Shown one piece after another: positions 1 to 15,404 of a DNA stretch of 17,359 nt; the stretch's first letter is position 1; each line of letters begins with the position of its first letter. The stretch lies in the NCBI GenBank assembly GCA_001794905.1, contig MGLW01000041.1:1-17359 (forward strand), read 5' to 3'. The notes under the pieces are model-generated. The model was not told where the DNA came from. It worked only from the letters and a program-made list of their open reading frames with translations, and searched no databases. Both the position numbers and the translations under genes were made by a program. This stretch comes from Chlamydiae bacterium RIFCSPHIGHO2_12_FULL_49_11 (GTDB lineage: Bacteria > Chlamydiota > Chlamydiia > Chlamydiales > 2-12-FULL-49-11).

Positions 1-158
1 AAGAAGCATGCCCTTTTGCCCACTGCTATCATGAAGTCGTAGGGCTGCCGCACGGCCAAACATGCCGTTTATTGGATAAATACCCCACACCTCCCTGTTG
101 TACTCATACAACCGAGGAGGTGTTACAACGATTTGAGTTACTAAAATGTCTTTTGTAA
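1..158 (+). CDS. 3' end of a partial GT9-family glycosyltransferase, a paralog of the next gene (not in the ORF track)
   Basis: The frame from nt 3 reads EACPFAHCYHEVVGLPHGQTCRLLDKYPTPPCCTHTTEEVLQRFELLKCLL*. This aligns with the C-terminus of 146..1048 (SDCKFAHCYNE...PHCRLV...NPPCC). Its TAA at 156-158 overlaps the next gene by 13 nt. Confidence 0.8.
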   Translation, partial: EACPFAHCYHEVVGLPHGQTCRLLDKYPTPPCCTHTTEEVLQRFELLKCLL

Positions 159-1048
159 AGAAACCGGTGAATCCTACGATGCTAAAAAATCCGGAATCGA
201 TTGTTCATATTCAACGAACCTGTGCGGGACTCGGTGATGTCATCGGGGTAGAACCGGTGGTGCGATATTATATTGAGCGAGGAAAAACAGTGAACCTACT
301 CAGCTATTTTCATGAAGTGTTTTGTAACTACCCCTCAGAACAACTCATCTGCGATTTTGCATTTCACTATTCTTTGAATCAAAGTGGATTAGCTTTCTTT
401 ACTCATTTCCGGCAGAATTTCATCAATTTGGATATTGCACCCTTTAAATTTTCAAAAATGCATCTATTAGACGCTTACAGCAAGGAAGCAAACATTTTTG
501 ATTTAAAACCTTCGACACCTCGATTGTTTCTTTCCGACGAAGAAAAAAGACCTCTATTTACTCACGATTATGCTTTATTGCACATAGAGAAAAACCACTT
601 TCATAAATCCAGAAATATTTTTGGTGTTAACTGGAAAATTATTATTGACTATTTAGAATCAAAAAATATTAAGCTATATCAAATTTCTCAAACAGGGAAA
701 GACTTGGTCGCTCCCTGGGTGAAGACAAGCTCTCTTCGAGATCTCATGTCGTTGATTTATAATAGCAAGTTGTATATCGGTAGAGATTCGGGCCCGGGAC
801 ACATTGCTACAGTGTTCAATATTCCTTCCCTTCTTTTCTTTGGCAGTGTGAATCCTAAGTGGATTTATCTAAATTCGGAAAATAAAGTGTTCTTGCAATC
901 GGATTGCAAGTTTGCGCATTGTTATAATGAAAATTATAATCATCCAAGATTGCCTCATTGCCGTCTTGTAGGCGCCAGAAAGAATCCTCCCTGCTGTGTT
1001 GTCCCCGTGAGTGACATCATAAATGCCATCGACTCTTTCATCGGATAG
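146..1048 (+). CDS. Glycosyltransferase family 9 (ADP-heptose:LPS heptosyltransferase-like)
   Basis: N-terminal GLGDVI motif, SLRDLMSLI..SKLYIGRDSGPGHIA..FNIPSLLFFG (GT9 DSGxxHxA signature) and a Cys-rich C-terminus. Confidence 0.85.
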   Translation: MSFVKKPVNPTMLKNPESIVHIQRTCAGLGDVIGVEPVVRYYIERGKTVNLLSYFHEVFCNYPSEQLICDFAFHYSLNQSGLAFFTHFRQNFINLDIAPFKFSKMHLLDAYSKEANIFDLKPSTPRLFLSDEEKRPLFTHDYALLHIEKNHFHKSRNIFGVNWKIIIDYLESKNIKLYQISQTGKDLVAPWVKTSSLRDLMSLIYNSKLYIGRDSGPGHIATVFNIPSLLFFGSVNPKWIYLNSENKVFLQSDCKFAHCYNENYNHPRLPHCRLVGARKNPPCCVVPVSDIINAIDSFIG

Positions 1049-1057
1049 CAATCCTAA

Positions 1058-1091
1058 TTGTCTAGACAAATTGCGCTATCCCCCTTATTAT
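1058..1091 (+). promoter_or_regulatory. Putative sigma70/sigma66-type promoter with an overlapping 12-bp palindrome
   Basis: TAGACA (1063-1068), a 17-bp spacer and TATTAT (1086-1091), 8 nt before ATG 1100. The perfect palindrome TTGTCTAGACAA at 1058-1069 covers the -35 box. Confidence 0.35.
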
Positions 1092-1099
1092 AAAATTGT

Positions 1100-1933
1100 A
1101 TGTTTAGAAAACTGCTAGGCAGATTATCTGCAGACCCTTGGTATCCTTTATCCAGAGTAGCGCAAACAATTTCCATTAGAGACGTTGATTATATCCCAAA
1201 AGTAGCACAAGCGGGGCAATGTTTTGAAGAAGACGGCCTATGTTACCAATTGATGCACAATGGACTTAAAGTTCTGCAAGACTCTTATTACGGAAAATGG
1301 GGAACCGATATCATTGAAGGGCTGCAAGGGCATCATGAGCCACAGCAAGAAAAAGTTTTTTACGAAGTGCTTAAATACATTGCACCCGGAGCTGTGATGA
1401 TTGAACTCGGCTGTTATTGGGCATATTATTCTATGTGGTTTGCAAAAGAAGTCGTGAATGCAAGAAACTGTCTTATAGAGCCTGATCCAATAAGAATGAA
1501 AATGGGTAAAGCGCATTTTGCTTTGAATAATCTGAAGGGGCAATTTCATGAAAGCTATATTTCTAACGAAACCGATTCTCATTTTGATACGCATGCAACA
1601 AGGATCCGGTTGGATGATTTTTTCAAGGATAATAAATTGGACCGCGTTGCTATTTTGCATGCTGATATTGAAGGTGCAGAGTTTGCTATGCTACAAACCT
1701 GCAAAAATGCAATGTTAAATAAAGACGTCGATTATTTTTTTATTTCTACACATAGTCTGCAGCTTCATAGTGATTGTATGAATTTCTTAAAGGAATATTC
1801 GTACCAAATCATTGCAGAACATTCTAATGAAGAAAGTTGCTCAGGAGACGGTCTAATTGTAGCAAAATCAAGTACAGTGTCCAATCCAACAACGGTTAGT
1901 ATTAATAAATACCGCTCTGTTTTTGCAGTTTAG
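1100..1933 (+). CDS. FkbM-family SAM-dependent methyltransferase
   Basis: Motif I MIELGCYWAYYS, IEPDP after the second strand, RLDDF and ILHADIEGAEFAML (FkbM DIEGxE motif). Confidence 0.85.
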   Translation: MFRKLLGRLSADPWYPLSRVAQTISIRDVDYIPKVAQAGQCFEEDGLCYQLMHNGLKVLQDSYYGKWGTDIIEGLQGHHEPQQEKVFYEVLKYIAPGAVMIELGCYWAYYSMWFAKEVVNARNCLIEPDPIRMKMGKAHFALNNLKGQFHESYISNETDSHFDTHATRIRLDDFFKDNKLDRVAILHADIEGAEFAMLQTCKNAMLNKDVDYFFISTHSLQLHSDCMNFLKEYSYQIIAEHSNEESCSGDGLIVAKSSTVSNPTTVSINKYRSVFAV

Positions 1934-2855
1934 CTGATTTTTCTCTATCGTACTCCTTGCAGTTTTTTACCAGATGTCGGTAAAGTTTATAGCCTTGCCA
2001 GGAGGCTTTGAATCCGGCACGCCATAGAATGCGAAGAAAGTAGAGCCCCGCTCCCATGGCGCTCCAGAGGAGGTGGGTGGGGGCAAACCATTTATTGACA
2101 TAGGTGAGAATGCCTCGGATGTTACAGAGACATGGCATCATGGAAGGGCACCGGCTCATACTGCGGTTGTTAAAATCGATGCATGTGGTCTTTGGAGAAT
2201 GAATAATTTTATAACCACGCCCGGTCACCTCGCGGCTTAAATCAACATCTTCCTGCAGAAGAACATATCTAGGGTCAAAGGCATGCCCGATTTCTGAAAG
2301 AAGAAAGCGGGGCATCATCATGAAAGCCCCCTTCACATGCCCCACCTCTTGCTCGCATTCAATGTCAAATTCGATATAACTAGACTTCTTTAGTAACGTT
2401 TTGCTTTTTGCAAACCAATGGAAAAGGGAGATAAAGTAAATAAGCTTTCCGGTTGTTTTGACGGGATACGTGTAACTTCCGTCTAAGAGCATTAACTTAC
2501 AAGAGAGGATGCCGATATGTGGATCGGAATCAAGCGTTTGGACAAGATCGTCCAAAAATCCCTGTTTCATCTCCATATCAGGATTAAGAAAGAGGATTAC
2601 GCGTCCCTTAGATGCATCAAATCCGATCTGGTTTGCCCTCGCAAAACCAATGTTGCGGCCGGTCTGAATCAGCTTGATGTGCGGCAGAAATGCAAGCGCT
2701 TCCACTTTCGGGACCGTTGCATCGGTCGAGTCGTTATCAATTACGATATGCTCATAACTGAGATCTTTAATGTGCTTCATCACCGAAACAAGACAGTTTT
2801 GGATATAGTCTTCCGACTGATAGGTTACGGTAATTATACTCAAATCACATGTCAT
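1902..2855 (-). CDS. Glycosyltransferase family 2 (GT-A fold)
   Basis: SIITVTYQ, VIDNDSTDAT, NIGFARANQIG, LFLNPD, VKGAFMM, FDPRY..QEDVDLS. Start is either ATG 2855 or TTG 2861, overlapping the AGCS stop. The 3' end overlaps the FkbM gene convergently by 32 nt. Confidence 0.88.
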   Translation of the reverse strand: MTCDLSIITVTYQSEDYIQNCLVSVMKHIKDLSYEHIVIDNDSTDATVPKVEALAFLPHIKLIQTGRNIGFARANQIGFDASKGRVILFLNPDMEMKQGFLDDLVQTLDSDPHIGILSCKLMLLDGSYTYPVKTTGKLIYFISLFHWFAKSKTLLKKSSYIEFDIECEQEVGHVKGAFMMMPRFLLSEIGHAFDPRYVLLQEDVDLSREVTGRGYKIIHSPKTTCIDFNNRSMSRCPSMMPCLCNIRGILTYVNKWFAPTHLLWSAMGAGLYFLRILWRAGFKASWQGYKLYRHLVKNCKEYDREKSAKLQKQSGIY

Positions 2856-4167
2856 AGACAAACGAAGGAGATTTTACCTCATCCCTCAGACGGAAGATAC
2901 CCAATAAGTTGATTATGAGCAAGAGCGCTCCGGCAATTGACATAACAAGAAGCGGTACGGACGGGTCAAAATAACTGAAATAGATGAAAGCAAAAATCCC
3001 GTAAAGCACATAGATTCTTTCCCCGTACTTGGGCGACAGGAAGCGGGCGCATTTAAGCCCTACGCACATGTAAGCGATTATCGTTGTGAACCCCGTTACG
3101 AGGAGAAACAAAGGTAAAAAGACCTTCATGTACGGAAAATAAAGAGACAGGGTATTTTGTACAAGATCAGAGGTAGCAAGTTGCGGGCTGGCGGTCCAAA
3201 GGCCCGAAATAAGGACCATTAAAATACTCATCGTACAGATGAAGCTGTCGATAAATACTCCTATGACGGAGATGCTCGCTTGCTTTTCCGAATGGGTTAC
3301 CGACGACTCGCTCTGGATAATCGAATCATACCCGATGCCTATGTCGGCCGAATAGGCGGCCCGCGCCATCCCGTGCTGGATGGCAAGGAAAATGCTGCTT
3401 CCGACAAAGCCACCCACGGCGCTATGTCCCGTAAAGGCCGTCTTGAATACCGAAAGGAAAATCGCAGGTAAAAGAGCGGCATTACTGATAATCACATAGA
3501 GGCTCATCACGATATAGATTATGACAAAAACCGGCATGACGTACACGCCGATCCGTCCGATTCGTTTAACTCCCCCCACGCTAGCAAAGAGAATCAAAGT
3601 CAGTAGGACCAGCATCACGAGAGGACGGTTCAAACTCCAGTTCGATGAAAGGCAGTCGGTGAGCACGGTAAATTGGTAAATCTCGACCCCGTAAATGCAG
3701 AGCAGCACGGCAACGAGGGTTGGCGCCCACATTCCTTTGAAGGCAGCTTTTAAAAAATAAATCGGCCCGCCGTCATACCCTCCCCGGCTGTTTGGAACGC
3801 GATATTTGATGCCGAGGTAAATTTCGGAATACTTGATGATCGAACCCAAGAAAGCTGTCAGCCAGAGCCAGAAAAGGGCGCCCGGCCCCCCGATCTGGAG
3901 CGCGGTCACTACCCCGACGATATTGCCGATCCCGATCATTCCCCCTACCGAAGCAAAAAATGCTTTTAACGGATGCACCCCTTTTTTCTCTTTGCTGCCG
4001 GAGATAATAAAACTCCAGAAAAGCCTGAGCGCTCCCGGAACCGATGTCAATTGAAAAAATCCCATCCGGACTGTCATAAATACACCCAAACTGACAATCA
4101 GTATGAAGGCGATGTTGGCCCAAAAAAAGGAATCGACCCGTGAAAAAAAATTGAAAAGTGAAAACAT
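2845..4167 (-). CDS. Alanine/glycine:cation symporter (AGCS family, DagA/AlsT-like) amino-acid carrier
   Basis: 440-aa polytopic membrane protein with GGMIGIGNIVGV..A...GGPGALFWLW, KYSE..LG.KYR, GGPIYFL, GGVKRIG and DSFICTMS, all typical AGCS motifs. Confidence 0.92.
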   Translation of the reverse strand: MFSLFNFFSRVDSFFWANIAFILIVSLGVFMTVRMGFFQLTSVPGALRLFWSFIISGSKEKKGVHPLKAFFASVGGMIGIGNIVGVVTALQIGGPGALFWLWLTAFLGSIIKYSEIYLGIKYRVPNSRGGYDGGPIYFLKAAFKGMWAPTLVAVLLCIYGVEIYQFTVLTDCLSSNWSLNRPLVMLVLLTLILFASVGGVKRIGRIGVYVMPVFVIIYIVMSLYVIISNAALLPAIFLSVFKTAFTGHSAVGGFVGSSIFLAIQHGMARAAYSADIGIGYDSIIQSESSVTHSEKQASISVIGVFIDSFICTMSILMVLISGLWTASPQLATSDLVQNTLSLYFPYMKVFLPLFLLVTGFTTIIAYMCVGLKCARFLSPKYGERIYVLYGIFAFIYFSYFDPSVPLLVMSIAGALLLIINLLGIFRLRDEVKSPSFVYDM

Positions 4168-4175
4168 TTCTTTAC

Positions 4176-5024
4176 CTAACTCCGATACAAACTTTCGGGC
4201 AAATATCTCGGTATTTCATTCTTGGCTGCCGTGAGAACCACCACCGCAGAGCCGATAAGAACAGCACGTACGCCGCCGCCTCTGAAAAACGATCTTACCC
4301 CTTCATTTTGCAAGATTCCCCTGATTATCTCAACCATTGATTTTTGCCTGCTCTCCCCTACCGGAGCTTGCATCCTTGTACGGACGAGGTCAAAAGGGGT
4401 GCTCAAATACCCGGCAAGGGCTCCGGTAAAGGCGGAAAGATACACCTCTTTGACAGCATCTTTTTTGACAAGCCGGCCATTGATCTGATCCCGGAGAACC
4501 CTATTCCCGCCGAAAAGTCCCCAATTGAAAACGCCGTCTCTAAAGGCAGTGGGCACACCGCCCCGTAACAACCCAAGGACGGCGCCCCTGTTGTAAATGG
4601 CACGGGTAGCTTGCCATAAAGATTCTCGGGTGATTTGCTGGCGTGTCATAATTCCCTCTGCAACAGTGTTGAAAGGGGAACCGACCATACCTGAAGCCAG
4701 ACTTACAACAACACGTTCGGTATTGCTTTTCTCCTTGAAAAGCTTGGAAAAACTATGTTCGCCGAAGAAAGCCGCCGCTTCCGCCGGCCCGCTCCCCATA
4801 TAATTTACGCCGATCCCTTTGTATCCTAACTGCAAAAGATGAGAAACATTTCCTATCGGAGGAAACCTTGTCCGGGCCATGAGAAACGTTTTTACCGTAT
4901 ACATCGGCTGCGTAGTCAAAAGCATCACAAGACATGCCGATGCTCCATTTGCCACATGGCCGACTTTATTCAACCGGTGGCGTTCCACCATAACGGAAGG
5001 TTCGCTATTGGTAATGCTCGACAT
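4176..5024 (-). CDS. Mitochondrial carrier family (SLC25/MCF) protein
   Basis: Three repeats of about 90 aa: QPMYTVKT..GYKG, PFNTVAEGIMTRQQ..LLRG, and TPFDLVRTRMQ..NEGVRSFFRG (canonical Px[DE]xx[KR]xRxQ and EG....FRG). TAAGGGAAG lies upstream of the ATG. Confidence 0.88.
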   Translation of the reverse strand: MSSITNSEPSVMVERHRLNKVGHVANGASACLVMLLTTQPMYTVKTFLMARTRFPPIGNVSHLLQLGYKGIGVNYMGSGPAEAAAFFGEHSFSKLFKEKSNTERVVVSLASGMVGSPFNTVAEGIMTRQQITRESLWQATRAIYNRGAVLGLLRGGVPTAFRDGVFNWGLFGGNRVLRDQINGRLVKKDAVKEVYLSAFTGALAGYLSTPFDLVRTRMQAPVGESRQKSMVEIIRGILQNEGVRSFFRGGGVRAVLIGSAVVVLTAAKNEIPRYLPESLYRS

Positions 5025-5033
5025 ATTCTTCCC

Positions 5034-6161
5034 TTACTTTGCTCCCGCTTGTGACAGCAAACTCTCAATCTCGGATTGTCCGTGTTTCCTGGCCGCATCG
5101 AGAGCCGTCACTCGGAATTTGCTAGTGGCATTAATGAACTCGAGTCTGTCACTTTCCTCGATTGTGCCGGTCTTTTGCAACTCGTGTAATCGTGCTAGAA
5201 TAAATCGGGTAATGGGAACCGATCTCCCCACCGCAGCATGCATCAACACGGTGTGTCCATTAGCGTCTTTTTTCAGCATGGAAAGCGGGTGTTTGGCCGC
5301 CGCTTCTACGAAGAGACTATATTGTCCTATCGCAGCCAAATGGGTAATATCAAAAGACTCCTTTGAATCCGAAAGCAGCACATCCGGAAGAAGTTCTTCC
5401 GAAACCGCCGCCGCCTTTTTTTGCTCCACTTTTCTGAGTAGGGAGAGATCGACTTCGCATGCAGGACTTTTTTGCGACAGGCACCCGTCTGCGTGTGTAA
5501 CAGCACCGATTCCATTCAGCTGCTCTTTAAAGAGGAGAACGGCGTTTTCCAGAGAAGGCCCTCCCTCCGCCCTATCATCAAGAGAATCTATAAAGAAAAC
5601 TGCCTTACCCGTTCCTTCTGTGATGGCAGTCCTTTCAGCATCTTTCTGATTCCAAGCCCAGCAAATCACCCCTTCTCCATCTTTATATACGACATGTTTC
5701 GGTGCCATTGTTACAGGCTCTTTGCTGCCAATTCCCGTAAAAAGCCCTTCTTTGCCGGCAAGTGTGAGTGAAATATCCCCGGTCAATTTTTCAAGATCGT
5801 ACCCCCCCATCGGAAATTGCACATCGACGGAATAGGCATTATAAAAGTCGATGACTGGCAAGAGTCTTGGAAATTTCCCGTTGAGCGCCCTTCGGGTGAG
5901 TGATTCGATAGAAGAAGGAAATTCGTTCGGATTGCAGCCAAATTGGGAGTATGCATTTCTCCATACGGCAATGCGTGGCCGCGGTTTTACGGATTCTCCG
6001 AGTTTAAAGCCCTTTTCGAGCAGCAATTTCTGCAACTCGGAAATTTTCGAATCAATCGTCTCGGTACGAAGTTGTTGCTGATCAAAAGAAGCTACAACAA
6101 AGCCCATTTTTGTGGTCGGAAATTGATTAAAGACCTGACTGTCAATAGATATTCTCATCAT
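5034..6161 (-). CDS. B3/4 (PheRS beta editing-like) domain protein fused to C-terminal ankyrin repeats
   Basis: N-terminal ~235 aa: WRNAYSQFG.NP..FPSSIESL.RR, VIDFYNAYSV..QFPMGGYDL, VVYKD..GVICWAWN.KD..RTAIT. C-terminus: DANGHTVLMHAAVG and VTALDAARKHGQSEIESLLSQAGA (ankyrin consensus). Strong SD: TAAGGAGG. Confidence 0.85.
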   Translation of the reverse strand: MMRISIDSQVFNQFPTTKMGFVVASFDQQQLRTETIDSKISELQKLLLEKGFKLGESVKPRPRIAVWRNAYSQFGCNPNEFPSSIESLTRRALNGKFPRLLPVIDFYNAYSVDVQFPMGGYDLEKLTGDISLTLAGKEGLFTGIGSKEPVTMAPKHVVYKDGEGVICWAWNQKDAERTAITEGTGKAVFFIDSLDDRAEGGPSLENAVLLFKEQLNGIGAVTHADGCLSQKSPACEVDLSLLRKVEQKKAAAVSEELLPDVLLSDSKESFDITHLAAIGQYSLFVEAAAKHPLSMLKKDANGHTVLMHAAVGRSVPITRFILARLHELQKTGTIEESDRLEFINATSKFRVTALDAARKHGQSEIESLLSQAGAK

Positions 6162-6171
6162 GGGAACCTCC

Positions 6172-6789
6172 TTACTGCTGAGAATGAAAAAAAGCTCGTA
6201 TTAAAACGGCAATGCTTAAGACCATAATTATGGCCGAAACTTTTCCCTGGTATTTTCGAATCAGAAGCGAATTCCCCAGACTGATTCCCAAAAATCCTAA
6301 ACACATAAACCATATCCATGACGCGGTGATGCAGCCGGTCATAAAAAAGACCTTGGGCAAACCTGAAAAAATAGTGGAGGACGAACCGATTGTCAAAAAA
6401 GCATCAATCAATGCGTACGGATTCAGCCACGAAATTGCAAGGGTAGAGCCGACAATGCGGAGAATGGGCAACGTTTTTGGTTCTTCAAAACTTTGCTCAT
6501 TCGGCATTTTGTACCATGATCGGATGGCCAGAAATGACAAAAACAAAATGCCGCCAAGAAAAATCCCCGCTTTTAATAGCGGAATATTGAAGATAACGAG
6601 CGATATCCCCCCCACTGCAAGCGCGATGAGAACTGTATCGGCTAAAGAAGCCACAAGCACAACCGTGATGACGTTGACCATTCGCCCGCGGTTCATCCCT
6701 TGGCTCAAAACGAACAGATTTTGCGGTCCCAAAGGAAGAATGAGTCCCAATCCGAGTAATATACCTTGAAAAAAGTGAGAAAAGTACAC
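6172..6789 (-). CDS. LysE/ArgO-family amino-acid exporter
   Basis: GILLGLGLILPLGPQNLFVLSQG and ISWLNPYALIDAFLTIG are ArgO/LysE motifs. About 6 hydrophobic segments. GTG start with a GGAGG SD. Confidence 0.9.
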   Translation of the reverse strand: MYFSHFFQGILLGLGLILPLGPQNLFVLSQGMNRGRMVNVITVVLVASLADTVLIALAVGGISLVIFNIPLLKAGIFLGGILFLSFLAIRSWYKMPNEQSFEEPKTLPILRIVGSTLAISWLNPYALIDAFLTIGSSSTIFSGLPKVFFMTGCITASWIWFMCLGFLGISLGNSLLIRKYQGKVSAIIMVLSIAVLIRAFFHSQQ

Positions 6790-6800
6790 AATATTCCTCC

Positions 6801-7772
6801 CTATCCGCCTGTCACTTCTTGTTGCCGACCTTCAAACACCATCTCATCAAAACTCACGGGAAGGCCCGTAAGTCCCGCTTTGAAATATCCGTAGCAATGG
6901 TGTGCTTTTGCGTACGGGTCCCAGTTCATCAAAATCTGATGCGCACGGGATAAATGGTAGTGCGGCACTGCCGGAAGCAAGTGGTGAGTTAAATGATACG
7001 CGTCGCCGTGGGGGTATATAAAAAATCGTGCCACAGGATTTATGAGATTATTACGGGTCATCATGATCTCATCACGCTCGCGATAAAGGCCGCCATGCTC
7101 GGAAATTTCGGAAAAAAAACGAATCACTTGCAAAGGCGCAAGAAAAGGAATCACCCAGTATAAGACAAAATACACACCCCATCCCTGAAAAAGAATAACG
7201 GCACTCGCAATGAAAAAGAAACAAAGACGCATCCCCAGCTCTTTCATGGGTGTCCCTTTGACATATACAAAAGAAGAAAATGTGTTTTTCAAGTACATCA
7301 AAGAATCCCGCAGAAATATCACTCTGAGAAAACGGGCAATCAGCCGATTTTTTTCAAAAGGAAGAGCATCAACACCGATTTTGGTATATCGGATCAGGTC
7401 AGGGTCTTTTTCTTTGTTTCCCAAATAAGTGTGGTGTGCCATATGAGATTTGCGATACGCGTGCAAAGAACTTCCGATAGGAAAGGCACACAAAAAAAGG
7501 CCCAGCGTGTTGTTCAGGAAACGGCTTTTAAAGAGAGCACCGTGAGACGTTTCGTGCAACAAATTTTCCAGGGCGCGCATCCTGCTTCCGATGACAAGCA
7601 CAGATATAAAATAAATAAAGGGATTATGGAACCCGATGCTTGCTGCTATAGATAGAAAAATAAGCCCGTAATCCATGAAAAGAAACACGAAATTGTACCA
7701 ATGACTTTTCTTATTTAGTTTATCTAGTATCCGGAAAAGATCGGGACGGGACTTTTTTAGATCAGCAATCAT
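6801..7772 (-). CDS. Fatty-acid-desaturase-family membrane di-iron oxidase, possibly an amino-acid hydroxylase/desaturase (GntB/RtxC-like)
   Basis: Three His boxes (HETSH, HMAHH, HLTHH) plus SEH and hydrophobic segments. Substrate is inferred only from gene context. Confidence 0.85.
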   Translation of the reverse strand: MIADLKKSRPDLFRILDKLNKKSHWYNFVFLFMDYGLIFLSIAASIGFHNPFIYFISVLVIGSRMRALENLLHETSHGALFKSRFLNNTLGLFLCAFPIGSSLHAYRKSHMAHHTYLGNKEKDPDLIRYTKIGVDALPFEKNRLIARFLRVIFLRDSLMYLKNTFSSFVYVKGTPMKELGMRLCFFFIASAVILFQGWGVYFVLYWVIPFLAPLQVIRFFSEISEHGGLYRERDEIMMTRNNLINPVARFFIYPHGDAYHLTHHLLPAVPHYHLSRAHQILMNWDPYAKAHHCYGYFKAGLTGLPVSFDEMVFEGRQQEVTGG

Positions 7773-7797
7773 TAACGGCTCTCAACAATAAAGTAGG

Positions 7798-7826
7798 ATT
7801 CTAACAAAAAACGAGAATAACATCCA
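7798..7826 (-). promoter_or_regulatory. Putative extended -10 promoter for the leftward operon
   Basis: On the minus strand: TGGATG, 17 bp, then TAGAAT preceded by TGn (TGTTAGAAT), within the 85-bp divergent intergenic region 7773-7857. Confidence 0.3.
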
Positions 7827-7857
7827 CAAAAATATTGGTTTTTTGTAAACTTTTTTC

Positions 7858-8649
7858 ATGGACTTGTCGGAAACTTCATCAACACGGCAAAAAACTCCTT
7901 GGGGTGCCAGTTTATTTTCCGGTTTTACTATCGGAGTTACCGAAGCCCTGGTCAATCACCCCTTATGGGTATTGAAAACGAGATTTCAAGCAGGATGGCC
8001 TTTTACACTACGCCCTGCCGTTCTCTATCGCGGAATCATAACTCACATGGTCAGTTCCGTTCCCGTCGATACGATAGCGCTGGGCGCTGCAAGAGCCATC
8101 AATGAACGCGCTTTACCGGAAAATATGTCCCCGACGGCAAAACGAATTATAGCGGGTTTTTTCGGCGGCATATTGGCAGGCTTTGCCGGCTCGACATGTG
8201 AGATGGCAATGACGTGGCAACAAAAAGAAAAGTCATTTTCTAGAGCCGTCCGTATGATTGTACAATCGGGAGGACCGGCTCATCTTATGACGGGATCCAT
8301 CGCTCTTTCTTTACGAGAAGGAGTTTTCTGGGTCGGCACGTATTCGGCAACGAATCTCATTGAACACAACTTAAGAGCACGGGGAAAGGGAAAACTTTTT
8401 TCCACTTTCGTAGCCGGACTATCTTCCGGAGTAGTCTGCTCCTTTATTTCACAGCCTTTTGACAATATCAAATTGGTGATGCAAATTTCTCCGAGGCGGT
8501 GTAGCTTGATAAAGACCATTGGCGAAATGGCAAAAAAAGAGGGCCATGCCGCCTTCTTCCGGGGATATAACCTTCGGGTTTTACGGGTAGCTCTTGCGGT
8601 AATGATTGAAGGGGCCCTTAATAACGAATGCGAAAGGAGATTTTTTTGA
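7858..8649 (+). CDS. Mitochondrial carrier family (SLC25/MCF) protein, second copy
   Basis: NHPLWVLKTRFQ..LYRG, STCEMAMTWQQ..LMTG, and SQPFDNIKLVMQ..KEGHAAFFRG form three carrier repeats in 263 aa. Confidence 0.88.
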   Translation: MDLSETSSTRQKTPWGASLFSGFTIGVTEALVNHPLWVLKTRFQAGWPFTLRPAVLYRGIITHMVSSVPVDTIALGAARAINERALPENMSPTAKRIIAGFFGGILAGFAGSTCEMAMTWQQKEKSFSRAVRMIVQSGGPAHLMTGSIALSLREGVFWVGTYSATNLIEHNLRARGKGKLFSTFVAGLSSGVVCSFISQPFDNIKLVMQISPRRCSLIKTIGEMAKKEGHAAFFRGYNLRVLRVALAVMIEGALNNECERRFF

Positions 8650-9764
8650 ATACGCTCCGCCCTTTTCTTCTCGAAGAATTCATGAAAGAGTATGAATTCA
8701 CCGCACCCTACATGCTCTGTTCTTCGGTTGCAGAAAGTTGGTCTCTCAAGGAAATATTGGAGATGGCCGATCCGGAATTACACGAGAGGTGGCATACACT
8801 TTCTCTGGAATACACTGAACCGGCAGGAATGCCTCTCCTCCGCCATGAAATTTCTTCCCTCTACACCTGCATTGATTCGGACCACATCTCAACTTTTGCC
8901 GGCGCCGAAGAAGGGATTTATTGCACGATGCGAACCCTGATTAAACCAAATGACCATGTGATTGTCGTAACTCCTTGCTACCAATCCCTCTTGACCCTCC
9001 CCCAAGATTTAGGGGCCGACGTGACAAGGCTCCCCCTCTTGCGGGAATTGAACTGGAACATCGATCCTGATATGCTCAAAAAAGCCTTTCGGAGGAATAC
9101 GAAACTCGTTGTCCTAAATATTCCGCACAACCCGACCGGGAGCCTCATTGACAAAGAAGTGTTCGATCTCCTCATTTCACTTGCGAGACACTGTGGCAGC
9201 TATATTTTTTCCGACGAAGTGTACCGCTTTCTTGAAGTGGATGAAACTACGAGAACTCCATCGATAGCAGATGCATATGAACGGGGAATCACCCTCAATG
9301 TGATGTCAAAATCGTTCGGACTTCCCGGTCTTCGGATCGGATGGCTCGCTTCCCAAGACACCGATTTAACCCATGCAGTAGGGTCGTATAAACTCTACAC
9401 ATCGATTTGCAATAGCGCTCCGAGTGAACTGCTTTCCCTTATGGCTCTCGGTAAGAGGGATTATATCCTAAAACGAAATCGAACCGTAATGCTGAATAAC
9501 ATCGCACTTCTGGACAACTTCATGGAGAGAAATGAAAAACATCTTTCCTGGATTCGGCCAAGAAGCGGCTCAATGGCAACAATCGAACTTAAAGGCCGCG
9601 GTCCGGTAGAAAGCTTTGTAAAAGAGCTTGTTACAAAAACCGGAGTGCTATTACTCCCCGCTTCGGTTTTTGGTTTGCAGGGAAATTTTTTCCGCATCGG
9701 TTTCGGCAAAAAGACCATGGCAGAAATCTTGCCGCGACTTGAAGAGTTTTTATGCAAATCCTAG
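8646..9764 (+). CDS. PLP-dependent aminotransferase class I/II-fold enzyme (VioD/GntC-like subgroup possible)
   Basis: NIPHNPTG, FSDEVYR, MSKSFGLPGLRIGW (PLP lysine) and FRIGFG. Likely start is TTG 8646, which has an AAGGAG SD 6 nt upstream and a TTGA overlap with the carrier stop. The ORF track starts at 8628. Confidence 0.9.
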   Translation: MNTLRPFLLEEFMKEYEFTAPYMLCSSVAESWSLKEILEMADPELHERWHTLSLEYTEPAGMPLLRHEISSLYTCIDSDHISTFAGAEEGIYCTMRTLIKPNDHVIVVTPCYQSLLTLPQDLGADVTRLPLLRELNWNIDPDMLKKAFRRNTKLVVLNIPHNPTGSLIDKEVFDLLISLARHCGSYIFSDEVYRFLEVDETTRTPSIADAYERGITLNVMSKSFGLPGLRIGWLASQDTDLTHAVGSYKLYTSICNSAPSELLSLMALGKRDYILKRNRTVMLNNIALLDNFMERNEKHLSWIRPRSGSMATIELKGRGPVESFVKELVTKTGVLLLPASVFGLQGNFFRIGFGKKTMAEILPRLEEFLCKS

Positions 9765-10684
9765 ACCGCAAAGAAATAGAAAACGCCCTATCGATTGAAC
9801 GCGTCTTCCGGCTCATTGAAGAAGGATTCATTGCATATAGCCAAAAGAAGACGGTGATTCCCCCTGTGGCAGCGATGCAGTTTGAAAACCCTCCGGGAGA
9901 CTGCCATATCAAATATGGATATCTCAAAGAGGGGTCCTATTTTGTGGTGAAGATTGCAACGGGCTTTCCTCTAAATACAAAGTCAGGGCTGCCCGCCGGA
10001 AACGGCATGATCGTTCTTTTCTCAAAAAAAACCGGCGCCCCTCTCGTCCTTTTTAACGATGAGGGTTTTTTGACAGATATGAGAACCGCGATTGCAGGAG
10101 CAATTGCGGCTAAAACTCTTGTCCCTTCGCATGTTGAGTGTATCGGATGTGTCGGAACGGGAGCCCAAGCCTATTATCAGTTATCGCTTCTACCTCACGT
10201 TACCCGGTGCCGAAAAGTTCTGATTTGGGGAAGAGATGGAGAAAAAGCGCGCCGATTGGCAAAAGATCCGCGCCTTGGACACTTTTCCATCCAAGTGGCG
10301 CCCACTCTAGATTCCCTTGCCGCCTCTTGCAACCTAATCGTAACCACTACCTCGTCAAAAGCCCCCCTCCTCTTCGCGCACCATATCAAACCGGGAACTC
10401 ATATCACCGCTGTCGGAGCCGATGACATAGGAAAACAGGAGCTGGATCCTTCCCTTTTTCGCAAAGCAGACCTTGTAGTGTGTGATAGCATCGCACAATG
10501 CCTTTCCTTTGGAGACACTTCCCACGCCGTACGGTCGGCAGCGATCAAAAAAGAAGACTTGATGGAACTCGGAGCACTCTTAGCAAACCCCCTCCTTGGC
10601 AGAAAAAATGATACTCAAATCACAATCTGCGACCTGACGGGAATTGCCGCCCAAGACCTCCAGATTGCCATTGCGGCAATGTAA
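9752..10684 (+). CDS. Ornithine cyclodeaminase / mu-crystallin family protein
   Basis: HIKYG, VVKIATGF, LTDMRTAIAGAIAA, Rossmann motif GCVGTGAQA, HITAVGAD..GKQELD and DLTGIAAQD. Overlaps the upstream gene by 13 nt. Confidence 0.92.
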   Translation: MQILDRKEIENALSIERVFRLIEEGFIAYSQKKTVIPPVAAMQFENPPGDCHIKYGYLKEGSYFVVKIATGFPLNTKSGLPAGNGMIVLFSKKTGAPLVLFNDEGFLTDMRTAIAGAIAAKTLVPSHVECIGCVGTGAQAYYQLSLLPHVTRCRKVLIWGRDGEKARRLAKDPRLGHFSIQVAPTLDSLAASCNLIVTTTSSKAPLLFAHHIKPGTHITAVGADDIGKQELDPSLFRKADLVVCDSIAQCLSFGDTSHAVRSAAIKKEDLMELGALLANPLLGRKNDTQITICDLTGIAAQDLQIAIAAM

Positions 10685-10735
10685 TAAAAACTACTTCTTG
10701 ACAAAAAGTTGATAAAAAAAAGAAACTATTTCTTA

Positions 10736-12277
10736 ATGGAAACTGCAAAAAATATAGGAACTTGGATGCTGTCGTGGGTAGGGTATCCGGTTTCACCCAA
10801 GCCAATAGACACGCAAGGGAAAACATCTTCTCCGGAAGAAGTAAGTCTTCGGTGTTTGATATTTGTTAAAGATCATTTGAGTGACAATGGAAAAATTGTC
10901 AATAGACTTGTGCGCCGGCGTGTGCGGGTGCAAAATGATAAAGATGCCGAAGAGCGTTTTTGTAATAATGTGAATGTAATTAGTACTGGTGTTACTGTCG
11001 CAGGATACCTTGCTTTACCTTTACTTCCGGTCGGGGTGGCAGTTACAAGCGGAACGATTATTTATAGGGCTGCACAAAGTAAAACGGTACAAGGAGTGTG
11101 TAGTAAAATTGCATCTGTTTTTGGATATCAGCCAAACCCGTCCGAGATTGATACCGAAGGTACAACTTTTACGCCCTTAGAGACTTCAAAACGAGTTCGT
11201 GAAATACTACGGACACACTCATCCATCAAAGATTCAAAGGAAACTGCAAATACAGAGAGAACTTCGCCTGCCAATGGCGGTAAAACCGATGCTGAAAATA
11301 CCGAGAAAGCTTCTCCTGCAAATAACACTAAAACCGATGATGTAAGCCCGTCAAAGCATCAGGAAGCAAAAGGCAAGCCGAAAAACTTGATGATGGAACT
11401 TCTTAGATATCAAAGAAACAAGCAGCTTGCAAAAGAAGCTGCCAATGTTCAGTTTTATCTTTTCGGGGCCAGGGCCGTAGTTGCCACCGTCATTTCAGGC
11501 CCCGCAGGTCCGATAACCATGATATCAGGTCGATTATTCGATTATTCGATAACAAGTCTGGAAGAATATACCGGAGGGAAGTCTGTAATAGGAACTATTG
11601 CAAAAGAAGCTCTAAATGTATATGGGTTCATTTCCGACCCGGCCGATTTTATTACTCGAAGCACGATGGCTAATATTACTGATCTGGCTTTGAATGGTCT
11701 GGAAGTTCAAGATCCAAGATTACGTGTTGTAGCCCATAGCGTCACTGATCTTGCAGCGCAATCTTTAAAAAAGCAATTTGAAAACGAAACAAATGATTTG
11801 AAAAATGAGCTCGGCAAGTTACCGAGTCGAATTCTAGGACGTCTTCCATCAAATATCGCCTCCGGAATTACGGATGCCTCTCAGGCGATTGTAGATAGCA
11901 AACCGGGGCAAATCGCCTCTAAAGCTCTTTCCGTTATCCCGACAACATTGGTCTCTAATGTAATGAGGAATGTTGCCCTGCGAGACAAAGTGTTTAATGA
12001 CGACCGAGATTCGTTCATACCCGGAAGTGTACGTGTCGGAAATGTGGAGATCCCTTCTTACGTGTGTACGCTTGTTCTCGGTATGGCAGCCGGATTTGTC
12101 CATCGAATCGTTGACGACATTAACAAAGTACGCCTGCGTAAAGATGATTATAATAAATTGAAAAAAGAAAAAGAGAGTTCTTCATCGGAGGATAGGTTGC
12201 CACTTCCGCTTCCTTACGATCCTCCCCGATTCATTGAGGATGGAAATAACCAAAATTCACTCATAAATCCCGCATGA
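10736..12277 (+). CDS. Hypothetical protein with internal repeats and hydrophobic segments (possible effector/inclusion-membrane-type protein)
   Basis: Long ORF (track start TTG 10709; first ATG 10736) with no recognised domain. Contains a duplicated GYxxxPxxIDTxGxTxxPxExSxR motif and a 30-aa hydrophobic stretch. Confidence 0.75.
   Translation: METAKNIGTWMLSWVGYPVSPKPIDTQGKTSSPEEVSLRCLIFVKDHLSDNGKIVNRLVRRRVRVQNDKDAEERFCNNVNVISTGVTVAGYLALPLLPVGVAVTSGTIIYRAAQSKTVQGVCSKIASVFGYQPNPSEIDTEGTTFTPLETSKRVREILRTHSSIKDSKETANTERTSPANGGKTDAENTEKASPANNTKTDDVSPSKHQEAKGKPKNLMMELLRYQRNKQLAKEAANVQFYLFGARAVVATVISGPAGPITMISGRLFDYSITSLEEYTGGKSVIGTIAKEALNVYGFISDPADFITRSTMANITDLALNGLEVQDPRLRVVAHSVTDLAAQSLKKQFENETNDLKNELGKLPSRILGRLPSNIASGITDASQAIVDSKPGQIASKALSVIPTTLVSNVMRNVALRDKVFNDDRDSFIPGSVRVGNVEIPSYVCTLVLGMAAGFVHRIVDDINKVRLRKDDYNKLKKEKESSSSEDRLPLPLPYDPPRFIEDGNNQNSLINPA
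11243..11338 (+). repeat. Two-copy 48-bp in-frame tandem repeat (16 aa)
   Basis: TANTERTSPANGGKTD / AENTEKASPANNTKTD. Both DNA units end in taaaaccgat. Confidence 0.75.
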
Positions 12278-15126
12278 CAAATCCAATTGATACTAGAAGT
12301 CCGGAACATGTGAACCCTCAGGTATTCAGCTTGTTCGAAACAGTCTCAAGTATGGCCACGGTGGATGCTGTCCGTTATCCTATGCCCAATCCTTTCCGAA
12401 CGACCGATACATTGGGGTTTTTCGTACAATCCCGCATCAAGGCAGGAAGGAAGTATTGGAGAGGAAACGTCTCTTCTGACTTCTTACGCGCCCATTTTCA
12501 TGAAAAGTCTATAACAAGCCTTCAAAAAGAACTTCACTCGCAAACATTGGAACAAGCAGCAGAAAGAATCCATTCGCTCGCTTCTACAGCTAAAAAATAT
12601 CGTATCATTACTCAATCTTTAGGTATCCTTTCCACCGGTGTCGATATCATGACGACAATCGGCATATATCGACAAGAAGCAAAAGCTCGAGGAATCGAGA
12701 TGGGAATTACAGATGTTGTAGTTGCCGCTCTGGAGCTTGGATTGAATTGGACCGTACATGGAGTCATTACGACGGCAGTCCTGGGCTCATCCACAGTATG
12801 TCCTTTATCGATCGGCGGTGCTGCAGTGGATTGTTTTGCTTACGATACACTCATTAGTGATTATGTGCATCTCGCAGGCAAAACAATCCTTGATCGGATC
12901 AAAGGTGTCAATCAAGCATTGGAGGAGAGCTCTAAACAAACAAATCCTCTTGTTGAAATAAAAGTAATACCCGCTCGGATTGATCGTAATGGAAACATTC
13001 ATCCGCCTAGGATTGAGACACAATTGCGACCCTTGAAGCCTAACATGAATAATAATTCGAACCCTCCCGACTTCAAGTTTGATACGGAGCTCTTTCAGAA
13101 TGGAATCGACCGTTTATATAGCAAAAAGGTCTTGCCCCCTTATACGGAAAGCAATGAGCCTATTCTGCCTCAAAAACCTGTTCTCGGGAAATTTAATGTT
13201 CAGGATCTTCCTATACGATTTTCCTTTCCGGGGCCCATGCCGATGAAGTCAATCCTGCCCCCGGGGTATGATATACAATTTAGTTTGACCGATAAAGGAA
13301 TTACCTGGAATATTTCCGCTATAACACCACAATCCATTGGCATTCTTGCAACATTTTCCCTTGCGGTGGATATAATGAGAAACCTTGCCTATTATACACA
13401 TGATCCGGATACGCGGAGCTCTGAAAATTTTCAATGGCATTTAGAAAAGTGGTCCAATGCGCATGAATCTTTTTCCCGAAGAGTGTGGGATGGAGATTTA
13501 CTACGCCATCCTATCATGACAATTGCACAACCGAACCAATTGCAAGAATTGAGGACACGGGAACTTGGCCGGGCAGCCCATCAGGAGTCCATCCGTTACC
13601 ACTCTTTGGGAAAACAAGGAAATGAAGTTTCCATGAGGGCCCTTGAACTTGCCTGTGAAAAAAATAATGTTCCTATGAAAGAAAACCGTTCTCAGCCGCA
13701 AATTGATTCGGATAAACTGATGCATGACTACATTCAGCATCGGGATGCTCTCCTTCAGCAGTTTTCCACTTCCGTCGAAAAAAATCCGAAGGAAGCAAAA
13801 GAAATTTTGGCCCAAATGGAACGATTTTATCCGGACGACGTTGCTGTATCCTTGATGGAAGCCGATCTTGCAGAACGTCGAAAAGACTACGACAAGATGC
13901 ATCAAGCAATGAATAAAGCGGCAAGACAAACACGCAGCGAAATAGAGATGCTCGAAAATATCCGTTTTGGCGCCGACGAGGAAAAGGCGGCCTTACGTGA
14001 TCAGGTAACCCAGCAAAAAAGCATGTTGCTTTGTAACATCAACGATCGGCATTTTCAATCGACTTATAATCAGGTTCAAAATGAATCGAAAGATAGGAAG
14101 TTAAAAGCACTCAGCCAGTTGCAGCAACAGATGCAGAAATTTCCGGACGACTTAGGGAAACAAAGGATCTATCGCCAGGCGGCAGAAAATGCAGGCCAAA
14201 TCAATATTGCTATCCAAGAGCAAATGCACATTGCCGCGAAAACGGGAACTAAAGAAGACGAAGGGGAATATTTAATCCTTTGTGAGAAATATGGGCGCAC
14301 TGAGACAGCATTGAAATATTATCAGGAAGGCAAATGCCGCCATGAAGAAAATAAAATGCGTATCTTCCGTAGTGCCATTGACCATGACCAAAAATCATTC
14401 ATAGCAGCACTTGGTTACAAAGAGCGTATGCTTTGTTTAAATACTCTTGTAAAGCAGGGGCGCCTGAATGATGCGATTGATATCCAGGAAAAATTGTGTA
14501 AGGAACACCCTGACGATGCTCGGGAAGCTCTGACCTTGTCGCGATTTTACTTGCAAACTCCCAGCCCTAAATCAGAATTTCGGCGGTTTTGTCAAGACCA
14601 CCCTGAAAACAAAGAGCTGAAAAAGGAATGGTTTCGTAGTCTGCTTGTAAGCCGTGATATGAATGAAGCTAAAATGCTTTGGAAAGAATTGAAGCCCGAC
14701 TTTCAAAGGGAGAGTGATTCCCATTCGCATTCGGTAGCTTCTCAAAAGGATTTAATCCATATCTATAAGTTGATGGGAGAGGATCATGATGCGATTTTGC
14801 ATTGGAATCGCGTGGGGCCGGCAATTGTCTCACACTGTGAAACGCTTGCTCCGGACGATCCGGAGCTAGATTCCTTGGCAGCTATTTACCTTTTATTGGA
14901 AATCAAGAAACCCTTACGTGAGCTGTACGAAAAAAAAGCGGAAAAGGAAAACTTGACCGGTGAAGAAAAAGAGATTTTCCAGGATTTATGTTCTTCTCGA
15001 AATGCAAATGGAATAAAAGACGTTGCAGCACACACGGCTATTTTTGCCGCTTCATATCAAGCCGGTTATTATGCGATGGGCCCTCTTTCAGAAAGGTTTG
15101 CCCGTTGGATTAATGGCGTATCTTGA
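12274..15126 (+). CDS. Large hypothetical protein with an N-terminal hydrophobic region and a C-terminal TPR-like helical region
   Basis: 950-aa ORF with an ATGA overlap with the previous gene. Repeated helix-PDD/PEN-helix units (FYPDD, KFPDD, QGRLNDAI...EHPDD, DHPEN, LAPDD). Confidence 0.8.
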   Translation: MTNPIDTRSPEHVNPQVFSLFETVSSMATVDAVRYPMPNPFRTTDTLGFFVQSRIKAGRKYWRGNVSSDFLRAHFHEKSITSLQKELHSQTLEQAAERIHSLASTAKKYRIITQSLGILSTGVDIMTTIGIYRQEAKARGIEMGITDVVVAALELGLNWTVHGVITTAVLGSSTVCPLSIGGAAVDCFAYDTLISDYVHLAGKTILDRIKGVNQALEESSKQTNPLVEIKVIPARIDRNGNIHPPRIETQLRPLKPNMNNNSNPPDFKFDTELFQNGIDRLYSKKVLPPYTESNEPILPQKPVLGKFNVQDLPIRFSFPGPMPMKSILPPGYDIQFSLTDKGITWNISAITPQSIGILATFSLAVDIMRNLAYYTHDPDTRSSENFQWHLEKWSNAHESFSRRVWDGDLLRHPIMTIAQPNQLQELRTRELGRAAHQESIRYHSLGKQGNEVSMRALELACEKNNVPMKENRSQPQIDSDKLMHDYIQHRDALLQQFSTSVEKNPKEAKEILAQMERFYPDDVAVSLMEADLAERRKDYDKMHQAMNKAARQTRSEIEMLENIRFGADEEKAALRDQVTQQKSMLLCNINDRHFQSTYNQVQNESKDRKLKALSQLQQQMQKFPDDLGKQRIYRQAAENAGQINIAIQEQMHIAAKTGTKEDEGEYLILCEKYGRTETALKYYQEGKCRHEENKMRIFRSAIDHDQKSFIAALGYKERMLCLNTLVKQGRLNDAIDIQEKLCKEHPDDAREALTLSRFYLQTPSPKSEFRRFCQDHPENKELKKEWFRSLLVSRDMNEAKMLWKELKPDFQRESDSHSHSVASQKDLIHIYKLMGEDHDAILHWNRVGPAIVSHCETLAPDDPELDSLAAIYLLLEIKKPLRELYEKKAEKENLTGEEKEIFQDLCSSRNANGIKDVAAHTAIFAASYQAGYYAMGPLSERFARWINGVS

Positions 15127-15239
15127 TTCACTAGGTTTCCTCAGGGTTTGATCGAGGCGATTATTAGAGAATGAGCATGTTTACGTAGTAACCATCATCT
15201 GTACATCAAAAAACGGTATGAAACGTACAGAAATATGAG

Positions 15240-15404
15240 TAATACCAAACGAAAGAAATACTTTCACAAATTCGGAATCATCTAACGGTCACCTTTGAAC
15301 GATCCTTTCTCACTCATATTGAAAAATATGGGTTTCGAAATGATCGTTCAAATCTGCCTCGTTATCTGGCTCGAATTTATGACATTATTTCTTGCGTTCG
15401 GTAT
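15240..15404. mobile_element. 165-bp fold-back MITE-like/palindromic element, copy 1
   Basis: Reverse-complement match to 16245-16409 with 3 mismatches. Ends are ATACC(A/G)AACG(A/C)AAGAAATA ... TATTTCTTGCGTTCGGTAT. No transposase in the window. Confidence 0.75.

Follow-up and report, generated by a model that had tools for sequence, protein, structure and literature searches.

Mitochondrial carriers of the SLC25 family have been treated as a eukaryotic invention. To our knowledge, the only bacterial case that has been studied is a Legionella effector. The available part of a 2026 preprint (10.64898/2026.03.31.715626) states that no prokaryotic SLC25 homologues are known, and our literature search, in which coverage of subscription journals was limited, found no paper on chlamydial carriers. 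Here we analyze contig MGLW01000041.1 of Chlamydiae bacterium RIFCSPHIGHO2_12_FULL_49_11 (assembly GCA_001794905.1), whose whole length of 17,359 nucleotides (nt) is referred to as the window. It contains two genes for SLC25-type proteins, named MCF1 and MCF2 after the mitochondrial carrier family (MCF), each located inside an operon. Several of the neighbouring enzymes resemble arginine-modifying enzymes, and one neighbour resembles CtdA, which the accessible text of PMC10018355 describes as a standalone canavanyl-tRNA(Arg) editor that guards against an arginine antimetabolite. The explanation that we prefer, with a probability of about 0.45 for the whole, is that the two carriers form a pair in the inner membrane of the bacterium and serve an arginine-analogue antimetabolite module.

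Fold, distribution and binding site of the two carriers

The two carrier genes are:

4176..5024, minus strand: MCF1, an SLC25/Mito_carr carrier of 282 amino acids (aa), identified by Pfam, AlphaFold2 and Foldseek; contact point II R162-D163
7858..8649, plus strand: MCF2, an SLC25/Mito_carr carrier of 263 aa, first gene of the plus-strand operon, identified by Pfam, AlphaFold2 and Foldseek; contact point II R153-E154

The analyses confirmed that MCF1 and MCF2 are genuine SLC25/Mito_carr proteins. The Pfam family Mito_carr (PF00153, cut-off 22.3 bits) matched MCF1 with an E-value of 2.1e-25 (88.7 bits) and MCF2 with an E-value of 1.1e-23 (83.2 bits). A six-frame Mito_carr search matched three repeats of MCF1, two of MCF2 and nothing in the 14 control genomes; the first and middle repeats of the carriers match the family weakly. 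The AlphaFold2 models, for which alignments of relatives served as input, reached a predicted local distance difference test score (pLDDT) of 87.8 for MCF1 and 88.6 for MCF2, with a predicted template-modelling score (pTM) of 0.84 for both, and displayed six long helices and three short matrix helices each. All top Foldseek matches in the PDB were mitochondrial carriers (UCP1, AAC and oxoglutarate-carrier-like; template-modelling (TM) score 0.65–0.79, probability 1.00), with scores of 0.65–0.73 for MCF1 against UCP1 and AAC and 0.77 for MCF2 against UCP1. The first non-carrier fold appeared only at an E-value of 0.05–0.08 and a TM-score of about 0.15. Comparison with the ESM Atlas gave TM-scores of 0.80–0.87 to carrier clusters.

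An earlier note on this contig, made from the sequence alone, had described two three-repeat MCF proteins of 282 and 263 aa, intronless and tightly coupled to their neighbours. The profile matches and the predicted fold both agree with this description. The open reading frames (ORFs) are uninterrupted, with no internal stops and no introns, and the coupling was read directly at the gene junctions. The stop codon of the B3_4 gene lies 9 nt before the ATG of MCF1 and the stop codon of MCF1 lies 8 nt before the ATG of the AgcS gene, while the MCF2 stop codon TGA (8647–8649) overlaps a TTG at 8646 (TTGA), with a GGAG at 8636–8639. The short Ser/Thr-rich N-terminal ends, which the earlier note had considered compatible with type III secretion signals, are unconserved in the clade alignments of both carriers and were modelled as disordered (pLDDT below 50 for residues 1–12 of MCF1 and 1–10 of MCF2).

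The SLC25 family is widespread in environmental Chlamydiota, where it is found in about a quarter of the sampled genomes, in clades that each have their own operon partners. Mito_carr genes were present in 106 of the 400 sampled genomes (88 of 334 high-quality genomes; 80 of 212 genera), including genomes that consist of a single contig, and in 13 of 41 relatives. None were detected in the 29 genomes of a family with genome sizes of 1.0–1.2 Mb. Homology searches with MCF1 gave only six weak matches in a word-index search and nothing in a related-locus search of the genome contigs. Searching 1.84 billion representatives with HMMER, we obtained 10 proteins at E-values of at most 1e-30 and 195 at E-values of at most 1e-10, with a best full-length identity of 40%. 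Among the best of these matches, two were identical to carriers extracted from chlamydial genomes, and most of the rest shared 30–48% identity with such carriers; 150 representatives were labelled solely by BLAST against these carriers. One 96-residue fragment in the representative library (P0129) shares 91% identity with the MCF1 N-terminus, which indicates that a close strain exists in another data set. The genome that harbours the window also contains a third Mito_carr ORF (G000 C19, L031:6224-7147(+); 307 aa, Pfam E-value 4e-8), followed by a gene for a RecD2-type helicase. This ORF is very divergent, sits on a very long branch of the tree described below and is devoid of the R-[D/E] motif.

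The chlamydial Mito_carr genes mostly sit in operon-like settings. The contexts at the 42 carrier loci examined outside the window (15 + 27) were:

17 of 42 loci: metabolite/H+ symporter-type gene of the major facilitator superfamily (MFS) immediately upstream of the carrier, on the same strand and usually overlapping
4 of 42 loci: carrier between genes for thiamin pyrophosphokinase and/or transketolase
3 of 42 loci: carrier adjoining AgcS
3 of 42 loci: carrier one gene from BrnQ
5 of 42 loci: carrier beside other enzymes or a binding protein
10 of 42 loci: carrier with no evident partner

A quick maximum-likelihood tree of 46 rows, from which one truncated row was omitted and in which the four likely eukaryotic rows are too few to address origin, placed all 16 MFS-paired carriers on one branch and the AgcS- and BrnQ-paired carriers on another (support 100 for each). 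MCF1 grouped with carriers from the genomes G189, G197 and G240 with a support of 96 in the Shimodaira–Hasegawa-like approximate likelihood-ratio test (SH-aLRT), and MCF2 formed a long branch inside the same group of 12 rows (support 87). In this tree, carrier context follows clade. Because related genomes are not independent, this match is read as conserved synteny and carries no statistic.

Two of the other clades showed features of their own. The MFS-paired loci (L017–L022, L043, L045, L049, L052, L053, L056, L058, L061, L062, L064 and L066) encode a highly conserved MFS partner (mean column identity 67%) followed by a carrier of about 250 aa, usually overlapping, with K-L at contact point II and a near-tailless N-terminus. 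A complex prediction for the MFS partner and its carrier, run without controls, scored 0.00 against a mark of 0.32 and speaks neither for nor against binding. At L041, L044, L047 and L048 (G180, G217, G129 and G322), operons consist of genes for thiamin pyrophosphokinase, one or two Mito_carr proteins and transketolase. The carriers in these operons combine R-Q at contact point II with signature motifs that are fully canonical, which suggests that they are carriers of thiamine or thiamin diphosphate (ThDP).

The residues at contact point II were used to predict substrate class. According to the accessible text of PMC6769469, G[IVLM] at this position goes with nucleotides, R[QHNT] with carboxylates and R[DE] with amino acids. 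In a profile alignment, R162 of MCF1 aligns with the Arg in helix 4 (H4) of contact point II in UCP1 and UCP2; MCF1 has the pair R-D and MCF2 the pair R-E. The nucleotide-type G[IVLM] was looked for at this position in both carriers; R-D and R-E were found instead. All 12 carriers of the MCF1/MCF2 group, whose clades have amino-acid neighbours, showed the R-[D/E] pair, compared to 0 of 31 others, the groups having been defined by tree and neighbours independently of the motif. The pair is R-Q in the thiamine-linked clade and K-L in the MFS-linked clade. Both carriers are thus predicted to have an amino-acid-type binding site. An Arg in H6 is invariant (R253 in MCF1, R240 in MCF2). In the matrix network, the acid of H1 is replaced by an aromatic residue (Y or W) and the base of H3 by M, while H5 is canonical, a pattern that is conserved across both clades and that gives the matrix gate two possible salt bridges and one aromatic/Met pair.

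Neighbouring genes and the candidate arginine-analogue module

The other features of the two divergent operons are:

2845..4167, minus strand: amino-acid carrier of the AgcS family (Na+/alanine type), encoded by the last transporter gene of the minus-strand operon (Pfam Na_Ala_symp, 2e-76)
5034..6161, minus strand: CtdA-like B3/4 editing-domain protein with C-terminal ankyrin repeats (Pfam B3_4, 4.4e-18; Ank_2)
6172..6789, minus strand: LysE/ArgO-type basic amino-acid exporter (Pfam LysE, 4.1e-23)
6801..7772, minus strand: GntB-like membrane di-iron hydroxylase of the L-arginine gamma-hydroxylase family, first gene of the minus-strand operon (Pfam FA_desaturase, 5.8e-38)
7773..7857, no strand: divergent intergenic region of 85 nt between the two operons, read directly
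8628..9764, plus strand: pyridoxal-phosphate (PLP) enzyme of the GntC/VioD arginine-cyclase type (NCBIfam GntC 241.1 bits, VioD 202.7 bits)
9752..10684, plus strand: enzyme of the ornithine cyclodeaminase/mu-crystallin (OCD) family (Pfam OCD_Mu_crystall, 3e-52)
10709..15126, plus strand: two ORFans in the same orientation (522 aa; 950 aa with tetratricopeptide repeats (TPR)), without a family and possible members of the module

The minus-strand genes follow each other in the order 6801–7772, 6172–6789, 5034–6161, 4176–5024 and 2845–4167 with gaps of 11, 10, 9 and 8 nt, and the plus-strand genes in the order 7858–8649, 8628–9764, 9752–10684, 10709–12277 and 12274–15126, mostly with overlaps. 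The true start of the PLP enzyme gene is probably the TTG at 8646 that overlaps the MCF2 stop codon. Promoter and terminator scans of the sequence gave counts at the level of shuffled sequence (19 versus 19.6 and 17 versus 15.7, respectively), and the Rfam scan detected only two tRNA-Met genes and no riboswitch, including the guanidine riboswitch. For the two ORFans, which overlap by 4 nt and have a GC content of 0.433 and a tetranucleotide-frequency (TNF) correlation of 0.823, we found no Pfam or NCBIfam family beyond a weak TPR match and no homologue in 40 relatives, so that they are of no use for judging the binning.

Sequence comparisons related several of the other neighbours to arginine or its analogues. 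By its score, the hydroxylase is a homologue of GntB rather than an equivalog. The PLP enzyme matched GntC in the PDB (8fft) with an E-value of 6.5e-41, and it keeps E9, S25-S26, K219 and R346, which the accessible text of PMC10367076 lists as GntC residues along with the substrate contacts T84 and F108. Another structure, 3op7, is a closer match to the PLP enzyme than GntC, but is without the SS pair. The best PDB sequence match of the B3/4 protein was CtdA, the canavanyl-tRNA deacylase (9f7e; E-value 1.8e-17, residues 63–194), which places it among the CtdA-type standalone proteins that have the editing domain outside PheRS, the phenylalanyl-tRNA synthetase, and makes it a predicted deacylase. 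The LysE-type exporter scored 136.6 bits for the NCBIfam L-lysine exporter and 96.5 bits for ArgO, both under the cut-off. The PDB matches of the OCD-family enzyme were alanine dehydrogenase (7.8e-45), iminosuccinate reductase and Pyr2C reductase. The AgcS assignment was above cut-off (TIGR00835 agcS, 371.5 bits; cut-off 272.65).

Taken together, the GntB-like, GntC-like, OCD-family, LysE/ArgO-like and CtdA-like B3/4 proteins would form an arginine-analogue module with a predicted cyclic product. The amino-acid enzymes that the earlier note had seen in the operons are thus there, although the NCBIfam and PDB matches replace its generic amino-acid pathway with an arginine-analogue module. Nothing in our analysis points to its further suggestion that host mitochondrial amino-acid pools are tapped.

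In the mechanism that we propose, host-derived L-arginine would be hydroxylated by the GntB-like membrane di-iron enzyme and then cyclised by the GntC-like PLP enzyme, yielding an analogue that resembles enduracididine or capreomycidine. The OCD-family enzyme might process the cyclic analogue further, LysE would export the product, and the B3/4 protein would clear tRNA(Arg) mischarged with the analogue. MCF1 and MCF2 probably move arginine or an arginine analogue, or both, and would do so across the bacterium's own inner membrane, probably by exchange; substrate and direction are here predicted from the binding-site residues and the neighbouring genes. The inner membranes of bacteria and of mitochondria share the same polarity.

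To see whether the module recurs, the B3/4 part of the window protein was used as a query against the phylum, and the matches were annotated. The following variants were found:

G209: MCF-MCF-2-oxoglutarate (2OG)-Fe dioxygenase-LysE-B3_4-ACT_7, with overlapping genes
G128: MCF-MCF-dioxygenase-B3_4-ACT_7
G343: MCF...dioxygenase-LysE-B3_4-ACT
G112: dioxygenase-LysE-B3_4-ACT_7, no carrier within the stretch examined
G287: LysE (divergent), dioxygenase-B3_4, no carrier within the stretch examined
G205 (L101, G205:C2, 3186-9563(-)): DDAH-like-LysE-B3_4-ACT_7-unknown gene-arginine deiminase, no carrier within the stretch examined
G276: B3_4 about 2 kb from a carrier

The second carriers of G209 and G128 share 39% (E-value 5e-60) and 31% (2e-40) identity with MCF2, the first carriers share 25–30% with MCF1, and LysE from the modules of G209 and G343 shares 34–37% with the window LysE. 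In three chlamydial families, a pair made up of an MCF1-type and an MCF2-type carrier thus occurs together with a hydroxylase, an exporter and an editor, even where the hydroxylase is of another protein family. Enzymes of PF10014 are taken here to hydroxylate free L-amino acids. The G205 variant provides a further arginine-guanidino setting for the CtdA-like editor.

Arginine enzymes were also found beside two of the three nearest relatives of MCF1. In G189, the neighbours are a GntB-like enzyme (372.5 bits versus the cut-off of 380), a Cys/Met-type PLP enzyme, LysE and a permease, and in G240 the carrier lies beside arginase and AdoMet decarboxylase. The third relative, in G197, lies beside a Thr/Ser dehydratase-like enzyme.

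Membrane placement and alternative readings

We place the carriers in the bacterial inner membrane with a probability of about 45%, the same as for the arginine-analogue explanation as a whole. Within that explanation, the two proteins would be functional carriers long resident in the chlamydial lineage. Translational coupling to cytoplasmic enzymes favours the inner membrane, as does the observation that the carriers are the only transporter besides the exporter in several operons (G209 and the four thiamin pyrophosphokinase-MCF-MCF-transketolase loci). A count by eye of positive-inside charges on MCF1 revealed no clear bias.

Several results weigh against this explanation. With regard to chemistry, the GntB-like enzyme scored 210.3 bits against a cut-off of 380 for NCBIfam GntB_guanitoxin (NF041365) and the GntC-like enzyme 241.1 bits against an equivalog cut-off of 415, and the substrate contacts are changed in the PLP enzyme (T84 to E, also F108 to Y). 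The scores below cut-off and the T84 replacement mean that the product is not established. With regard to the carriers, the canonical PX[DE]XX[KR] motif occurs only in the third repeat (PFDLVR, PFDNIK), and the hidden Markov model alignment to UCP2 places R253 three residues ahead of the canonical Arg of contact point III. The related genomes in which the contexts recur are non-independent samples. With regard to the membrane, the hydrophobicity of the carrier transmembrane segments, computed as the mean of the six best 19-residue windows, was 7.5 ± 1.0 (n=43), compared to 8.0 for likely eukaryotic carriers (n=6) and 3.1 for co-operonic bacterial transporters (n=9), and none of 258 carrier windows fell below 0. 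The segments are no more hydrophobic than those of the likely eukaryotic carriers and thus give no sign of adaptation to insertion by the signal recognition particle (SRP) and Sec, and the accessible text of PMC6110835 describes semi-hydrophobic transmembrane segments as typical of secreted membrane effectors. Finally, at the loci outside the window a carrier lies directly behind an MFS gene (17 of 42), beside AgcS (3 of 42) or one gene from BrnQ (3 of 42), a pairing that two membranes in series would predict.

These membrane-related results also support the strongest alternative, in which the carriers are exported by a type III secretion system (T3SS) into a host-derived membrane and swap host arginine for the bacterial analogue there, while LysE and AgcS serve the inner membrane. 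Candidates for this membrane are that of the inclusion and, by analogy with LncP, the inner membrane of mitochondria. We regard export to a host-derived membrane as possible, if doubtful. The bin encodes a T3SS, with sctU, sctV and sctW in a row, and a precedent exists in LncP, a Dot/Icm-translocated MCF protein that reaches mitochondria according to the accessible text of PMC3252375. The hydrophobicity is unchanged from that of eukaryote-like carriers and far from the SRP range (PMC6110835, as far as accessible), the pairing with a bacterial inner-membrane transporter is repeated (17 MFS, 3 AgcS and 3 BrnQ of 42 loci), LysE and AgcS lie beside the carriers in the window as a two-membrane relay predicts, and the carrier N-termini are disordered and variable. 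Export is opposed by the six helices of the carriers, since the published T3SS membrane substrates have one to three transmembrane segments in the accessible text of PMC6110835, so that six would be unprecedented for a T3SS. Moreover, the MFS-paired carriers have only 4–19 residues before the first repeat, and both the tight translational coupling to cytoplasmic enzymes and the role of the carriers as sole importer candidates in some operons fit a function in the cell envelope. A more specific form of export, which we consider unlikely, would deliver the pair by T3SS to the inclusion (vacuole) membrane, where it swaps host arginine for the bacterial antimetabolite and where the MFS-, AgcS-, BrnQ- and thiamine-linked carriers act as solute gates. 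If that were the case, each carrier gene would adjoin the inner-membrane transporter or enzyme that its carrier feeds.

A different function for the module appears improbable. The module could be defensive or catabolic, so that a foreign arginine analogue from the host or a competitor is taken up through the carriers and modified or degraded, with protection by CtdA-like editing. Variants in G189 and G254 pair the GntB-like enzyme with a PLP enzyme of the Cys/Met family, which we take to be the family of canavanine gamma-lyase, and the G205 variant contains DDAH-like and arginine deiminase genes. Furthermore, CtdA was discovered in a canavanine-utilising bacterium, as stated in the accessible text of PMC10018355. 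The GntB/GntC-type chemistry, however, builds a cyclic analogue from arginine (PMC10367076, as far as accessible), and the LysE-type exporter is constant in the module, which is easier to reconcile with export of a product than with catabolism.

The origin of the contig was examined by composition and read coverage. The window is the entire contig C41 of a bin of 1.26 Mb in 71 contigs, with 82% completeness and 0.06% contamination. The SctV protein of the bin is 71–72% identical to proteins named Chlamydiae bacterium and 66–68% identical to entries from Simkania, Rhabdochlamydiaceae and Neptunichlamydia. The bin contains at least three strong TLC nucleotide transporters, and a search for a 16S rRNA gene in it found none. 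Contig C41 has a GC content of 0.444, the lowest among the large contigs, and a TNF correlation of 0.894, in the low tail, values that are explained by its atypical flanks. The cluster core (2845–10684) is compositionally native to the genome, with a GC content of 0.471 and a TNF that correlates at 0.94 with that of the remaining genome; 300 random genome windows gave 0.944 ± 0.036, and 25% of them scored below the core. Positions 1–15000 are covered, at an even word depth of about 8, 5 and 6, by Logan contigs of three sequencing runs that belong to two studies, on groundwater and soil; one of these runs may be the source. Of the long Logan pieces listed, one contig differs by a single letter (X2, place 3878) and the others show no differing letter. 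The gene junctions are bridged by Logan contigs (X1 1–4929, 5064–10613 and 10594–15282; X3 4922–5637).

An artefact, whether through misbinning or chimerism of the contig, contamination from a eukaryote or the decay of functionless pseudogenes, would account for the outlying composition of C41 and the two large ORFans without homologues in 40 relatives, but is very improbable given the typical composition of the core, the even depth and coverage at 100% identity by independent contigs of two studies, the chlamydial genomes (including the single-contig G197) as closest relatives of both carriers, the intact reading frames, the key residues that are invariant across clades and the confident structure models. 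A chimeric or eukaryotic contig, which the earlier note had named as a finding that would overturn it, left no sign in the Logan coverage or the core composition. Misbinning and eukaryotic contamination were rejected on these two grounds and on the chlamydial nearest relatives.

Observations were also made on the flanks. The left flank (1–2861; GC content 0.38–0.41, TNF correlation only 0.655) contains heptosyltransferase-like, FkbM methyltransferase and GT2 genes and may be a recently acquired surface-glycan island; its GT2 ORF overlaps the AgcS gene by 17 nt. Contigs of all four runs join position 1377 to 1730 and omit 352 bases within the FkbM-like gene. The shorter side of this junction has only 24 letters, and a repeat or another organism is a possible source. 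On the right, tandem tRNA-Met (CAT) genes are located at 15930–16004(-) and 16045–16119(-), where word depth rises to 130–470 in all four runs, as expected for sequence common to other organisms.

MCF1 and MCF2 may be the first SLC25 carriers that work as ordinary parts of bacterial metabolism. If they are located in the inner membrane, mitochondrial carriers native to a bacterial inner membrane would be new. If they are exported, the sending of a large family of six-helix transporters to host membranes would be new, with a bearing on how metabolites cross the inclusion membrane. The module predicts unrecognised antimetabolite chemistry in chlamydiae.

Comparison with known systems

The two carriers resemble LncP of Legionella pneumophila in that a bona fide SLC25 carrier with six helices is encoded by a bacterial gene, presumed to be eukaryote-derived, and that the bacterium lives inside protists. 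According to the accessible text of PMC3252375, LncP carries a nucleotide (ATP) and depends for its delivery on the Dot/Icm type IVB system, whereas the window carriers have R-[D/E] at contact point II rather than G[IVLM] and belong to a chlamydia with a T3SS. In addition, they form a conserved pair inside metabolic operons. With the eukaryotic SLC25 amino-acid carriers (ORC1/2, SLC25A29, AGC and GC) they share R-[D/E] at contact point II; they also have an invariant Arg in H6, in MCF1 three residues off the canonical position, and the three-repeat fold of the solved mitochondrial carriers (TM-score 0.65–0.79). Their best identity to any solved carrier is 13–19%, they are shorter than the eukaryotic amino-acid carriers (263–282 aa), and the acid of H1 and the base of H3 in the matrix network are replaced by the aromatic/Met pair in both window clades.

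The encoding of a hydroxylase together with a PLP cyclase-type enzyme is similar to GntB/GntC of guanitoxin synthesis (cyanobacteria, L-enduracididine) and to VioC/VioD (capreomycidine). The window hydroxylase is of the transmembrane di-iron type, like GntB, and the PLP enzyme keeps E9, S25-S26, K219 and R346, like GntC. The guanitoxin route differs in that the window enzymes score below the equivalog cut-offs and carry E for T84 and Y for F108. Instead of the downstream guanitoxin genes, the cluster contains the OCD-family enzyme, LysE, the CtdA-like editor and the two MCF carriers. Compared to CtdA, the window B3/4 protein is fused to ankyrin repeats, and in other chlamydial modules an ACT_7 protein follows B3/4. 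The B3/4 protein nevertheless has in common with CtdA that its editing domain is found outside PheRS and in an arginine-analogue setting.

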